Below, in pieces: positions 50,756 through 55,056 of a DNA stretch of 64,000 nt (its first letter is position 1; each line of letters starts with the position of its first letter). The stretch is from Escherichia phage KarlSchell_Bas89. Location of the stretch: sequence record PQ850613.1; one strand, given 5' to 3'. The notes below the pieces were generated by a model. The model made no database searches, was not told where the DNA came from, and saw nothing but the letters and a program-made list of their open reading frames with translations. The translations under genes were made by a program, and so were the position numbers.

Positions 50756-51004
50756 CTACGAAGTTAGGATGATTTCAGCCTTAATATACTTCTCACCAAC
50801 AACCATATCACCAGACACAGGACGAACCTCTCCAGTGCCTAGGTTAACAGCTCCAGCAGGTTGACAACCCATGCTCTTAGCTGTCAGCATGTAAATCTTT
50901 TGAAGATGGCACTCTTGGAGAGTGAACACATCTGACATATTTAGATCTTTAACACGGAGGACTGTTTCCTCTTTGCTCTTAACTTTAATATGGATAGTGC
51001 TCAT
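50756..51004 (-). CDS. small early protein (paralog family)
   Basis: Similar size and motif pattern to neighbouring small ORFs. Confidence 0.35.
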   Translation of the reverse strand: MSTIHIKVKSKEETVLRVKDLNMSDVFTLQECHLQKIYMLTAKSMGCQPAGAVNLGTGEVRPVSGDMVVGEKYIKAEIILTS

Positions 51005-51006
51005 GA

Positions 51007-51282
51007 TTACTCCTGAACCACTGACATACGAATCACTTCAACTGGGGCATCACTTTTCATAACACCCAGCACACCAGTCAGAAGGTTAACCGTAGTAATC
51101 CAACCCTCTTCTACAGAGATCTTGTTGGACACGTTATTGACACGCATGTAATACTGAGGTGATGCTGTACCCCGCTGAACTACGAAAGGGTTTCCGGGGA
51201 TGATTGTATCCAGTGGATACGTGTTATCTTTAACCTTGGGGATAATTTTCATGTTAACCCTTAACAACCTTAGCTTCAACAT
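51007..51282 (-). CDS. small early protein
   Basis: ORF only. Confidence 0.35.
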   Translation of the reverse strand: MLKLRLLRVNMKIIPKVKDNTYPLDTIIPGNPFVVQRGTASPQYYMRVNNVSNKISVEEGWITTVNLLTGVLGVMKSDAPVEVIRMSVVQE

Positions 51283-51499
51283 TGACAGGATAAACCTTCA
51301 TGCCATCAACAGGGGCACTGAGTTCGCCATTTTCCAGTTTAACGCACACAACACGACCGAGAGGTGGCTCAATCCAAGACGTCCTATTTGTTGTGCACAC
51401 CATGTGGACGGGGCCACGTTCTTCTTTTCTGAAAGTATCCCCACTTTTTAACTCGGACAGCTTTACAGTTTTAGTAGGACTGACATCATTAACTTTCAT
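51254..51499 (-). CDS. small early protein (paralog family)
   Basis: VKLSELKSGDTFRKEE motif shared with 52297, 52531, 54559, 54778 ORFs. Confidence 0.4.
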   Translation of the reverse strand: MKVNDVSPTKTVKLSELKSGDTFRKEERGPVHMVCTTNRTSWIEPPLGRVVCVKLENGELSAPVDGMKVYPVNVEAKVVKG

Positions 51500-51507
51500 C
51501 TTGATTC

Positions 51508-51822
51508 CTATTTAAGTTTAAGGCTGATATTAAGGTGCATACACGCCCTGTTCTGTACAGCGGCATAACTTCTACCGAGCATGTCTGCCATTCTCTGAAT
51601 AGGCATGAACCCAGCATTACGAATAACAAACTGATCTTCTTCTTCCGTCCACTTGACACGAAGAGTAGCTCTGGAAATTTTGAATTTGGTACAGGCTGTG
51701 TTAACAGCATTCTCTGTAACATTCATAATCAAAGCTATCTCAGGGATAGAATACTCTTTGATCAACCGTTTAAGATTCTCGATTTGCATCGGAGTCCATA
51801 TGGTTCTTCTGGCTTTCATATA
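51508..51822 (-). CDS. putative DNA-binding protein with two tandem HTH-like repeats
   Basis: WTPMQIENLKRLIKEYSIPEIALIMN and WTEEEDQFVIRN...IQRMADMLGRSYAAVQNR; start placed at internal Met. Confidence 0.4.
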   Translation of the reverse strand, partial: YMKARRTIWTPMQIENLKRLIKEYSIPEIALIMNVTENAVNTACTKFKISRATLRVKWTEEEDQFVIRNAGFMPIQRMADMLGRSYAAVQNRACMHLNISLKLK

Positions 51823-52296
51823 ACCTCCTATTAAACATTTATGTAAGACTTGCTTAGATAAAGATTCAATAAAATAGGGGGAGGGGACGAATCCTCCCAT
51901 ATCCTATTAGTTAAGTTTGCATGTAAGATCTAACAATCGGTTGCCTTTGTAGGATAAGCGTTATGCTTTCCAGCACTAAACTCCCGCCCCCTTAGTGGGC
52001 TGGGTTATTAAAGGGTAACGCCCTTATGGGCTAGTTACATGAAAGTTAGTTTTGATAGGAGATCTGAAGTCCTATCTCAAAGGACTCTCGTAAGAATCCT
52101 TCACGATAAGCTCTTAGCAAGACTGGTCACATGGCTGATCACCGCATGTCTTACAGATCACTGGAGAGTAACTACAGGCAGGATACACTGACACACCATC
52201 CCATGTCTCACACCCACAGTCAGGGCACACTCCATTGGATTCCATGTCGTCATCGTCACACACTTCACCACCACCATAGCAAGCCACACGAACTCC

Positions 52297-52518
52297 TTAG
52301 TAAACTAAACCTACAACCTTTGCATCAGGCTGAGGTACTACTTGTGCATTAGGGCGATAACCATCTACTGAACCATTCCAAATATTGATGCAGGTTATAT
52401 ACCCGTCATTTACAGTATCTGTTTTAATCCAGAAATGTTTATCGTGCCCAAAAACATCCCCGTTAGAGAGGGAGGACAGTTCAACAGTTTTAAGGCACTG
52501 TTTAGGATTCAGTTTCAT
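52297..52518 (-). CDS. small early protein (paralog family)
   Basis: VELSSLSNGDVFGHDKHFWIK. Confidence 0.4.
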   Translation of the reverse strand: MKLNPKQCLKTVELSSLSNGDVFGHDKHFWIKTDTVNDGYITCINIWNGSVDGYRPNAQVVPQPDAKVVGLVY

Positions 52519-52530
52519 GATAACCTCTGA

Positions 52531-52824
52531 TTAATAAGTGACACCAGTTAATGTAGCTTCAGGCATGTGGACCACTTTAACTCCTGCTGCGAACCCATCC
52601 ATATCACCGTTATGCAGGTTGACTGCTTTATAGTAACCGGACAAGAAACTAGAAGTCTTTACCCAAAAGCCATTATTCCATTTGAATACAGACCCACCTT
52701 TGAGAGTGGAAATCTCAACTGTGGTCTCACTGTTTGTTGCATCAATAATCATAAGCAGTGTTCCAGTGCTCGTAGTTAACGCCCAGCTTCCTGCCATAAA
52801 GGAGGAAGAATGTTTTCTGTACAC
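52531..52824 (-). CDS. small early protein (paralog family)
   Basis: ISTLKGGSVFKWNNGFWVK. Confidence 0.4.
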   Translation of the reverse strand: MYRKHSSSFMAGSWALTTSTGTLLMIIDATNSETTVEISTLKGGSVFKWNNGFWVKTSSFLSGYYKAVNLHNGDMDGFAAGVKVVHMPEATLTGVTY

Positions 52825-52984
52825 GCTCTTTCAGAGTGTAATACTCGTCGGTATTAAACTTCTTACACTTAACACGAAAGCGTAAGGCTCTGGCATCCAT
52901 TCGAAGCATAGAGATCATTTGGTTATGGCTCTGGCTGTTCATCTCTTCCAGAAGTTTCTTGGTGTTCCAATAATGAGTTGTCAT
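52742..52984 (-). CDS. hypothetical small protein
   Basis: ORF only. Confidence 0.3.
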   Translation of the reverse strand: MTTHYWNTKKLLEEMNSQSHNQMISMLRMDARALRFRVKCKKFNTDEYYTLKERVQKTFFLLYGRKLGVNYEHWNTAYDY

Positions 52985-53267: not shown

Positions 53268-53286
53268 AATTATCTCCTAATTGATT

Positions 53287-53363
53287 TGGAGCACCGTGTA
53301 GGATTCCAACCTACAACCCATTTCTTAGAAGGAAATTGCTCTCTGCAATTGAGCTAACGGCGC
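53287..53363 (-). tRNA. tRNA-Arg (anticodon UCU), CCA encoded
   Basis: Minus strand folds as a cloverleaf: 7-bp acceptor stem (one G-U), D arm GCTC/GAGC, anticodon stem ATTTC/GAAAT with loop CTTCTAA, T arm GTAGG/CCTAC, 3' TCCA. Confidence 0.75.
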
Positions 53364-53544
53364 TTAATTTATTTAAATCATGTCACGCTTGGTAACATGA
53401 CCACATACTTTACACTGCATAACATAGCGAAGACCTTTGTGCTTTGTCTCACCGTAATCGTCAGTAATTCTCAGTGTATATTTTTCAAGGATTACCCAAT
53501 CATGCAGATGCACAAGACGTTTAAACCATTTGAACATACTGTCC

Positions 53545-53796
53545 TCAAGCACATGCAGGGAGTGTGATAATCTCAGGCTTGCCTTTGAAATCTTCAAAGA
53601 CACCCAAGAACGTAGGGCTATACGTGCCAGTACAAACAAACTCATCAAAGAGTTCATTGTACGAGGGCTTAATCTTCCAAGCCCACACATAGCCCATCTT
53701 ATCAATCGCAATGTGACGAGTGTTCAGAGGAACAGTCATCATCACACCATCAACTTCGATCACTTTAGTTATCGGTGCAGCTTGGAAGTTTTTCAT
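53545..53796 (-). CDS. hypothetical small protein
   Basis: ORF only. Confidence 0.35.
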   Translation of the reverse strand: MKNFQAAPITKVIEVDGVMMTVPLNTRHIAIDKMGYVWAWKIKPSYNELFDEFVCTGTYSPTFLGVFEDFKGKPEIITLPACA

Positions 53797-53972
53797 ACTT
53801 TACCTTTGATTCGCACGTTGTTGATGTAACAGGAAGGACAAGGACGAACAACTTCCCCGCCCTCTTTGATTGTCTTAATCTCACTACGAGTGATATTCAC
53901 ACGAGCACCACAACAAGGAGAGTTAACATAAGAGTAACCGGATTGGGTATGTTTGATGATTTGCTTGTTCAT
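53793..53972 (-). CDS. small Cys-rich zinc-ribbon-like protein (59 aa, below track cutoff)
   Basis: Hand translation gives MNKQIIKHTQSGYSYVNSPCCGAR...RPCPSCYINNV; stop overlaps next start (ATGA). Confidence 0.3.
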   Translation of the reverse strand: MNKQIIKHTQSGYSYVNSPCCGARVNITRSEIKTIKEGGEVVRPCPSCYINNVRIKGKV

Positions 53973-54448
53973 ATTAGCAACCTCTTGTTAGTTTAAGTAA
54001 GAGTTGGCCCTTAATTAAAACAACAAAGGCCACCTATTTCTAGGCAGCCTTTTATTCGATCAGTTATTATAAATCCAATCACCCTGACGTTTACGGATAT
54101 TACCAGTCAGACGCAGCATGGCAGATTCAATCTTCAGTGCACCATTTGCTACTGCATCCATACGCTCAGGACGGTTCATACGCTTGGTTGACTTCTTCAT
54201 AACGTTCTCTCTTTGTTAGTGGAGGCATTATTGCCAGTTGATATAAGGGATAGCCCTAGTCAGGAGGCTAATTCTGACCGCGTACTCATTGCCGACCTTC
54301 TCTGCCTAAGAGTTCAGGTTCTAGAGCTATCTCTTATTCCAACTGGTGAAGACCTCCTACCCCTAGGAGATCTCCCGAATCCCAAACCAATACGTACCCC
54401 TACGTAGTGGAAAGTCTACCGAAATTGCACAGGTTTTAGTCTAACACC

Positions 54449-54530
54449 GGATGTTCGAGCAAGCTCTCCCTAGCGGTGCGGCATATGCCTGATTGATATA
54501 GTTAGTGAGGAACACCCTCACATAGCCCTC
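54449..54530. repeat. conserved intergenic element, copy B
   Basis: Same flanking motifs as copy A; internal hairpin GAGC-AA-GCTC replaces GAGGA-TTGT-TCCTC. Confidence 0.5.
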
Positions 54531-54558
54531 TGATAAACACAAGGACTATAAGTCGGTG

Positions 54559-54777
54559 TTACTTTTGAGATAAACACAAATCAGGACGTGGCATAACAGT
54601 GGTTGATAGACCGAAGACTTCAACAGAGCCGCTGTTCAGATCGGCGGTCTTACACAAACCATCAGGAGTTTTATCTTCTAACATCAGCCAGAAACGTCTA
54701 TCGTAAGAGAAAACATCACCACCTTTAACATCTTCTGCATTTGCATATTTAGGAGAATCAACTACTTTAATTTCCAT
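54559..54777 (-). CDS. small early protein (paralog family)
   Basis: NAEDVKGGDVFSYDRRFWLM. Confidence 0.4.
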   Translation of the reverse strand: MEIKVVDSPKYANAEDVKGGDVFSYDRRFWLMLEDKTPDGLCKTADLNSGSVEVFGLSTTVMPRPDLCLSQK

Positions 54778-55056
54778 TTACTTACCCTTGTTGGTAACTA
54801 CTGCATCAGGAATAAGGACTACAGGAATATCTGAAGCGAGCTTCATAACCTGATTGATGTTTAAATTGAGCACCACACAACCAGCACTAGGTTTGACTTC
54901 TGCTACGTGTGGAGTGAAGAGTTGCACAACCATATAATAACTTATACCAGTGCTTTTAACTTGGAATACATCACCAAGCTTCAGATCACTCAACTTAAGT
55001 TCTGGATCTTTCAGCTCAAGGTCAACCTTCATCGTTAATCTCCTGTTGCTTGGCAA
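54778..55056 (-). CDS. small early protein (paralog family)
   Basis: LKLSDLKLGDVFQVKSTG. Confidence 0.4.
   Translation of the reverse strand: MPSNRRLTMKVDLELKDPELKLSDLKLGDVFQVKSTGISYYMVVQLFTPHVAEVKPSAGCVVLNLNINQVMKLASDIPVVLIPDAVVTNKGK

Follow-up and report, generated by a model that had tools for sequence, protein, structure and literature searches.

The subject of this analysis is a set of seven small minus-strand genes (50756-55032) in a stretch of 64,000 nucleotides (nt) from Escherichia phage KarlSchell_Bas89 (sequence record PQ850613.1; the whole stretch is called the window below). When identity, family and fold are taken together, the seven open reading frames (ORFs) almost certainly encode homologous members of one superfamily. 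From the sequence comparisons presented here, this is an ancient phage superfamily, previously unnamed and without a Pfam model. An initial annotation of the same DNA had described five such ORFs (51254, 52297, 52531, 54559 and 54778), of 72-97 amino acids (aa), sharing an L-x-x-L-K-x-G-D-x-F core. The five are present on the minus strand at these coordinates, every motif quoted is found verbatim and all five are members, but the count was incomplete: 50756-51004 and 51007-51252 bring it to seven. The lengths hold for three of the five only, i.e., 52531 encodes 73 aa (not 97) and 54778 encodes 84 aa (not 92). These two mechanical ORF lengths are too long because upstream GTG or TTG codons were taken as starts.

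Homology of the seven copies

Inside the window, phmmer links 52297, 52531 and 54559 with expectation values (E) of 1e-15 to 7e-6, 51254 to 52297 with E ~2e-4 and 54778 to 51254 with E ~0.007-0.009, the hub of this similarity network being 52297. An iterated in-window hidden Markov model (HMM) takes in all five, while 51007-51282 and 50756-51004 are borderline. The 120 relatives that were gathered form five BLAST clusters, and all those that were traced are on phage contigs of ~76 kilobases (kb). In profile-profile comparisons, the cluster of 52297, 52531 and 54559 matches each of the other four clusters with P values between 1.5e-6 and 9e-5. These matches span 47-69 collinear columns and begin at or near position 1, whereas reversed-alignment controls give P 0.046 or worse. 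A lack of significant profile similarity among the copies had been named as the result that would speak against the family; the opposite was found, since profile searches link all copies.

The distant-representative HMM was made from 133 cluster representatives, mostly of other phage groups, taken from an exhaustive HMMER search, and contains no window sequences. It recognises the seven window ORFs with E 1e-20 to 1e-11 (1e-20 to 1.6e-12 for the original five), and the next window ORF has E 0.8; with this HMM there is thus no eighth member among the window ORFs. The values are 9.9e-12, 4.9e-16, 1.2e-15, 1.8e-18, 1.7e-15 and 1.6e-12 for 50756, 51007, 51254, 52531, 54559 and 54778, respectively. 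The profile alignments of the seven copies begin at profile position 1 or 2 and end near position 70.

The pattern [LIVM]xx[LIVM]xxG[DSN]xF occurs 6 times in the 404 ORFs, vs. 0.9 expected after shuffling, and 5 of the 6 occurrences are in family members. Four other window ORFs with the motif or a weak phmmer match (17452-17676, 5822-6028, 57083-57310 and 56862-57086) were rejected as non-members (E 0.77 to 47). The signature columns present in the copies are (52297 numbering): G20-[DE]-[VT]-F23, an aromatic residue at 29/30, V44-N-L46-x-x-G49 and V60. Two deviations are seen, i.e., 50756 has Ser instead of G20 (LNMSDVF) and 51007 has N-P instead of D-V. Profile searches, the distant-representative HMM and AlphaFold2 models agree with the initial proposal that the copies are diverged paralogs of one small beta-rich domain.

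Predicted fold and breadth of the family

The AlphaFold2 models of 52297 and 54778 (predicted local distance difference test, pLDDT, of 84.9 and 85.4, respectively) agree in their strands, of which there are five in identical order. In 54778, an insertion lengthens the loop between strands 2 and 3, which is modelled with lower confidence. The five antiparallel strands of the models and their structural likeness to SH3-like domains point to an SH3-like small beta-barrel. Each protein (72-84 residues) is predicted to be approximately one such five-strand barrel after a short flexible N-terminus (consensus MKI...).

Foldseek against PDB gives nothing at E 0.001 or better, the best neighbours being EF-P and eIF5A, and the best match of a PDB profile search by sequence has E 0.17. 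Domain I of EF-P/eIF5A, the C-terminal domain of uL2, Tudor and KOW domains are like the family barrel without a detectable sequence relationship; moreover, they are domains of larger proteins, whereas the family proteins stand alone. A relationship with EF-P at the sequence level was rejected: compared with E. coli EF-P by hhalign, the family gives P 0.25 over just 14 columns, in domain II. As for the PGKG lysine of EF-P/eIF5A, the corresponding loop (positions 34-42) has no lysine that is conserved, its entropy being close to the maximum.

The strongly conserved columns are all hydrophobic or glycine (M1, I3, L17, G20, F23, Y30, M31, V44, L46, G49 and V60). Among polar columns, partial conservation is limited to K2, D21, T33, N45 and T48, and the entropy of the loops and of every other strand position is close to the maximum. 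The conserved aromatic residues are F23, Y29, Y30 and F54 (to be compared with the aromatic cage of Tudor domains, which binds methylated Lys or Arg). No conserved catalytic signature is seen in the column statistics. The isoelectric point (pI) ranges from 4.7 to 9.0 and the net charge from -3.5 to +2.6 across the seven copies; because of this mixed range, a generic nucleic-acid binder or a DNA mimic was rejected. Ten relatives are fusions of two full-length domains.

With a threshold of E 0.001, the exhaustive search yields 692 cluster representatives (clusters of 50% identity), of which nearly all have 69-87 residues and are aligned end to end. The family is widespread, being found in the early and accessory regions of many virulent phages, and is not confined to the one early region first described. 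Coliphage N4 gp21 (E 7e-18) and Pseudomonas phage LUZ24 gp7 (E 1.4e-13) are full-length members. The phiEco32 members are gp95-98, gp104, gp109 and gp113-115, those of SU10 are gp96-98, gp102, gp107 and gp111-114, and Salmonella phage 7-11 has three or four member genes. Contigs of large myoviruses with T4-type genes (157 kb and 190 kb) have single members; in T4 itself there is no member in the first 50 kb. Structure matches in BFVD extend the range to further phages (N4-like, T4-like, jumbo and others) that infect Enterobacteria, Pseudomonas, Vibrio and Aeromonas; these proteins are almost all uncharacterised. A search of a phage collection by tblastn with the family consensus, which is insensitive, gives two Vibrio phage matches only. 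All placed members are on phage genomes or phage-like contigs, bacterial genomes being outside the scan. One match, P0121 (470 aa, eight matched stretches), was discarded as a false positive: in this repeat protein, only a short 'GDVF' segment is matched.

Eight PHROGs, all labelled 'unknown function', cover the family. Among 140 aligned members, the numbers of matches are 132 (6570), 117 (7832), 100 (7431), 91 (8365), 52 (16423), 46 (9955), 37 (12612) and 11 (34455), so that most members match several of the eight at once. Distant intermediates likewise each match several of the PHROGs into which the seven copies fall. All seven window proteins fall into these groups over their full length; PHROGs keeps the groups separate and unnamed, whereas here they are joined into one superfamily with a common fold. 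No paper mentioning the eight PHROGs was found in the literature searched. Compared with Pfam, NCBIfam and PADLOC, the seven proteins yield nothing meaningful (for Pfam, nothing at E up to 1), and a Pfam scan of the 140 members (E up to 0.01) gives five scattered single-member matches (E > 0.002), none of them EFP_N or KOW.

At least eight unannotated PHROGs and many 'hypothetical proteins' of phiEco32-, N4- and LUZ24-like phages and of large myoviruses would thus merge into one definable domain family, whose confidently predicted fold and clear signature are enough to justify a Pfam-style entry. The homologs of N4 and LUZ24 are like the window copies in size and in their place among small early or accessory genes, and differ from them in number: one copy in the 20 kb examined of N4 and one or two in LUZ24, vs. 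7-11 in phiEco32-like phages. In the studied phages (phiEco32, SU10, N4 and LUZ24) all homologs are annotated as hypothetical.

Two annotation points must be added. An unannotated 72-aa ORF of LUZ24 (L011, 5115-5333, plus strand), between gp13 and gp14, has a weak family match (E 1.8e-4); to judge from this match it may be a missed second copy. Furthermore, tiny early ORFs in RefSeq records of relatives (L001, L002 and L008) are named 'DNA helicase' (~98 aa), 'terminase' (~121 aa) or 'polymerase' (~87 aa), and in phage EcoN5 a protein of 77 aa that resembles the family in structure is called 'Endolysin' (BFVD A0A7L4XW47). These implausible names are likely to be annotation-transfer errors.

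Tandem clusters, copy number and selection

The nearest relative of the stretch is Escherichia phage EP335 (Gordonclarkvirinae, Nieuwekanaalvirus), with 93% identity over the region; for KBNP1711, SU10 and other phiEco32-like podoviruses, the identity over the region is 85-87%. By these similarities, the source phage is a phiEco32-like podovirus of the Gordonclarkvirinae. The family genes are located on the minus strand, in a long block of small genes that is transcribed leftward and occupies the right end of the genome; there they form three tight tandem clusters: 51499-50756 (3 genes), 52752-52297 (2 genes) and 55032-54559 (2 genes). Consecutive genes inside the clusters are separated by 0-12 nt only, the stop and start codons of family genes abut or overlap, and most copies have Shine-Dalgarno-like boxes.

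The first cluster, in order of coordinates, begins with member 1 (50756..51004, 82 aa, motif LRVKDLNMSDVF), which is preceded by an AGGAG box. It belongs to the phrog_12612 group (E 2.8e-38) and is matched over its full length by the A3 HMM (E 3.7e-14). Member 2 (51007..51252, motif LDTIIPGNPF, phrog_7431 group) has 81 aa from ATG 51252; the mechanical ORF extends to 51282, and the profile alignment begins at ORF residue 11. Member 3 (51254..51499, 81 aa, motif VKLSELKSGDTFRK) is in the phrog_7832 group.

In the second cluster, member 4 (52297..52518, 73 aa, motif VELSSLSNGDVF, phrog_6570 group) is one of the two copies whose structure was modelled. Member 5 (52531..52752, motif ISTLKGGSVF) has 73 aa from ATG 52752. 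Its mechanical ORF (52531-52824, 97 aa) overlaps the end of the upstream ORF 52742-52984, and the family profile aligns from ORF residue 25. ATG 52752 has no clear Shine-Dalgarno box and overlaps the upstream gene; because no clear box is present, this start was deduced from the family alignment. Member 5 is 100% identical in EP335 and absent at the same position in phiEco32 and SU10; among the relatives compared, this copy is found in the EP335 lineage only.

The third cluster consists of member 6 (54559..54777, 72 aa, motif AEDVKGGDVF), which is acidic (pI 4.7) and whose start comes directly after the stop of member 7, and of member 7 itself (54778..55032, motif LKLSDLKLGDVF, phrog_9955 group, the other modelled structure). 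Member 7 has 84 aa from ATG 55032, which is preceded by an AGGAG box. Its mechanical ORF (54778-55056, 92 aa) starts with TTG 55056, and the profile aligns from residue 9.

Each copy is under purifying selection. The ratio of nonsynonymous to synonymous substitution rates (dN/dS), calculated vs. the EP335, SU10 and phiEco32 orthologs, is 0.07-0.23 in most informative pairs, with two outliers of 0.32 and 0.45. By member, it is 0.15-0.45 (50756), 0.10-0.23 (51007), 0.14-0.16 (51254), 0.09-0.14 (54559) and 0.07-0.32 (54778). The conservation of the orthogroups is uneven: member 6 has 94-97% identity in EP335, SU10 and phiEco32, i.e., across three genera (and is absent from YF01), whereas 54778 and 51254 have ~60%. 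Of the family, the 50756 orthogroup alone has a place in the 63-protein core proteome published for 36 Kuravirus-like phages, in which the YF01 ortholog (65406-65654 of its record) is core protein no. 55.

The copy number varies: 7 are present here and in YF01, 9 each in phiEco32 and SU10, and 11 in EP335. A more distant phiEco32-like contig of 77 kb has at least 7, phage 7-11 has 3-4, and the 12 kb of LUZ24 that were examined contain 1-2. Four EP335 copies are without counterpart in the source phage. The window paralogs have at most 36% identity to one another, and at the DNA level the similarity among copies is limited to the 24 nt that encode the motif (71-75% identity). A recent duplication was thus rejected, since no DNA repeats link the copies beyond this 24-nt stretch. 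Each copy is closer to some protein outside the genome than to its in-genome paralogs, and the two closest outside relatives that could be placed are on other phiEco32-like contigs.

The repeated duplication first suggested is therefore retained in part: the tandem 3+2+2 layout and the two-domain fusions fit it, while identities of 36% or less mean that any duplication is old. Tandem duplication fits as the origin of the clusters, any such event being ancient, and acquisition by recombination is indistinguishable from ancient duplication on these data.

At the edge of the array, 55022-55327 (minus strand) encodes a protein of 101 aa whose N-terminus is hydrophobic and which matches DUF7365, a coiled-coil family, below the threshold. 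It stands where EP335 (ORF115; L001 12786-13043), phiEco32 (gp115) and SU10 carry a further family member, which looks like a gene replacement at the array edge. Two small Cys-rich ORFs, 50076-50294 and 53793-53972 (both minus strand), have a weak mutual similarity (E 0.001), one of them with a faint zinc-ribbon match; 50076-50294 is roughly at the site of an extra EP335 family member (ORF95).

Possible roles in the early block

The placement of the family in an early region, as in the initial annotation, is borne out by relatives: the block corresponds to the early class of SU10 (CDS 69-125; PMC4281155) and of YF01 (gp82-122; PMC9965538). In the relatives it encodes mostly hypothetical proteins, which are thought to be host-takeover genes (PMC4281155, PMC9965538, PMC8948821). 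Three near-consensus promoter matches are located upstream of the leftward block that contains the family (59234-61357): 61357-61330, 59564-59536 and 59262-59234, all on the minus strand, of sigma-70 type and with 11/12 matches each in a consensus scan. The equivalent spacer of SU10 contains three sigma-70 promoters (PMC4281155). Promoter-like matches are not enriched overall across the region (32 found vs. 38 expected), so that the three are candidate early promoters by position and homology only. By orthology with the SU10 and YF01 early blocks, together with these promoter matches, the seven genes are putatively assigned to the early class.

The family proteins are proposed to be produced early in infection and to act as binding modules, not as enzymes. 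A conserved hydrophobic core with its turns (G20, F23, Y30, V44, L46, G49 and V60) would carry a highly variable surface, and because of this, different paralogs would bind different host macromolecules stoichiometrically. The binding would modulate host processes or block host defences rather than kill the cell. The non-enzymatic reading is suggested by the conserved columns being hydrophobic or glycine and the surfaces variable. An accessory character is suggested by the varying copy number and by the presence of the 50756 orthogroup alone in the core proteome. In view of the two-domain fusions of other phages, neighbouring paralogs may work as dimers. As a whole, i.e., with family identity, fold and binding-module role blended, this explanation stands slightly on the favourable side of even; taken alone, the binding-module, accessory or counter-defence role is a tentative proposal that falls somewhat short of being probable.

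The sole experiment that bears on the family included LUZ24 gp7 in a panel of 13 early proteins, with single-copy expression in P. aeruginosa PAO1; growth was inhibited by gp4, gp6, gp9 and gp11 only, gp7 not being among them (PMC4635203 and its supplementary table). The Gordonclarkvirinae have been reported as highly resistant to the defence systems tested (PMC11990801), which would be compatible with the binding-module proposal. The literature search found no functional data on N4 gp21, and the HIDEN-SEQ preprint makes no mention of Gordonclarkvirinae, Kuravirus or Bas9x phages. The empty scan with the padloc library is uninformative on anti-defence, as its models are those of defence systems.

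Several points weigh against the proposed binding-module role: (i) it is deduced from fold, conservation pattern, position and analogy; (ii) the non-toxicity is that of one distant homolog, LUZ24 gp7, in a different host; (iii) D21, Y29/Y30, N45 and T48 are partly conserved, so that all copies could have one common ligand; (iv) the early timing in the source phage is taken from relatives; (v) the reported defence resistance of the Gordonclarkvirinae is not tied to family genes.

Anti-CRISPR and anti-restriction clusters and the early 'monkey-wrench' proteins of T4 and T7 are multi-copy families of small early takeover or counter-defence proteins. The present family shares with them small size, early expression (predicted here from relatives), tandem clusters and variable copy number, and a conserved scaffold with a variable surface is also common to them; nevertheless, no sequence link leads from the family to a characterised anti-defence or host-takeover protein. 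A more specific form of the binding-module proposal would see the arrays as a combinatorial toolkit of SH3-like barrels, whose homo- and heterodimers would each neutralise a different defence or stress-response protein and would be a main cause of the resistance of Gordonclarkvirinae to most of the defence systems tested. This is speculative and distinctly unlikely; if true, the family would be a new and widespread type of counter-defence scaffold, which N4-like and LUZ24-like phages and large myoviruses also possess. The early genes of virulent phages are mostly without names ('dark matter'), and tandem arrays, variable copy number and purifying selection make the family genes tractable candidates for host-takeover or counter-defence binders in a phage group noted for its defence resistance. 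If they are ordinary redundant accessory binders, the gain is mainly a better annotation.

The main rival is that the gene-expression machinery (ribosome, tRNA/rRNA or RNA polymerase) offers one type of ligand to which all copies bind, so as to tune early transcription or translation. It is in line with the nearest cellular barrels (EF-P/eIF5A domain I, the uL2 C-terminal domain, KOW, and the Tudor-like RNA polymerase-binding domains of CarD and UvrD), with the partial conservation of the aromatic 29/30, D21 and N45 family-wide, and with the reprogramming of host RNA polymerase by phiEco32-type phages through their own sigma factor and gp79 (PMC8948821). However, neither the Pfam scan of the 140 members nor hhalign with E. 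coli EF-P gives a match, the loop that bears the functional lysine of EF-P is hypervariable in the family, and the charges, acidic to mildly basic, are unlike those of RNA binders. In addition, the long-term maintenance of 7-11 diverged paralogs argues for differing targets, and LUZ24 gp7 is not growth-inhibitory (PMC4635203). A shared ligand is thus an unlikely explanation, while being the strongest of the alternatives.

Much less probable is that the proteins are oligomeric 'sponges' for small immune signals, in the manner of the Tad/Acb strategy, the paralogs covering different signals. Small and abundant early proteins in multiple diverged copies, the hint of oligomers given by the fused two-domain forms and the reported defence resistance of the Gordonclarkvirinae (PMC11990801) would agree with it. 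Against this, the family has no conserved set of polar or basic pocket residues and no match to any Pfam family, known sponges included, and the resistance phenotype is not linked to family genes. Known anti-defence sponges and inhibitors (e.g., Tad2/DUF2829) give no sequence match and no close structural match.

That the proteins belong to the virion, as minor or capsid-decoration components, and do not act inside the cell is highly improbable. Small beta-barrel and immunoglobulin-like decoration proteins are indeed common in phages, but the family genes belong to the early block, which is far away from the structural module and has the opposite orientation, and the homologs of LUZ24, N4 and large myoviruses sit among early or accessory genes. 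Besides, no family member is mentioned among the SU10 proteins in the main text of PMC4281155.

Finally, the chance that the similarity is a fortuitous motif in short ORFs, or that the ORFs are not real genes, is negligible: the ORFs are short and some pairwise identities are just 20-25%, but the independent profile separates the seven from the noise by a clean gap, the reversed-alignment controls are negative, dN/dS is well under 1, orthologs are kept across genera, and the structure models are confident and concordant.

Other features of the region can be listed. A 130-aa gene between the first and second family clusters (51508-51900, minus strand) has a Sigma70_r4_2 helix-turn-helix match, and its counterparts in relatives are annotated 'transcriptional regulator, D5-like'; its product may be an early-region regulator embedded among the arrays. 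A tRNA-Arg gene (anticodon TCT; 53287-53363, minus strand) is located between family clusters, and likewise in EP335, phiEco32 and YF01. Terminator-like hairpins are enriched in the early region (48000-64000), with 27 found vs. 10.9 +/- 2.9 in shuffles; examples from the hairpin scan, both on the minus strand, are 55981-55962 and 54052-54025. A strong hairpin, GCCCCGGC...GCTGGGGC followed by T6, is just upstream of the 55032-54559 gene pair.

A second paralogous family is dispersed in the window. It consists of seven minus-strand ORFs of ~160-175 aa (16332-16835, 22695-23177, 28399-28893, 33547-34071, 38215-38706, 41534-42043 and 46674-47144), with mutual phmmer E values of 1e-20 to 3e-3. The two that were scanned are HNH endonucleases (HNH_3 with AP2 or NUMOD4), and the seven are probably homing endonucleases scattered through the middle-gene region.

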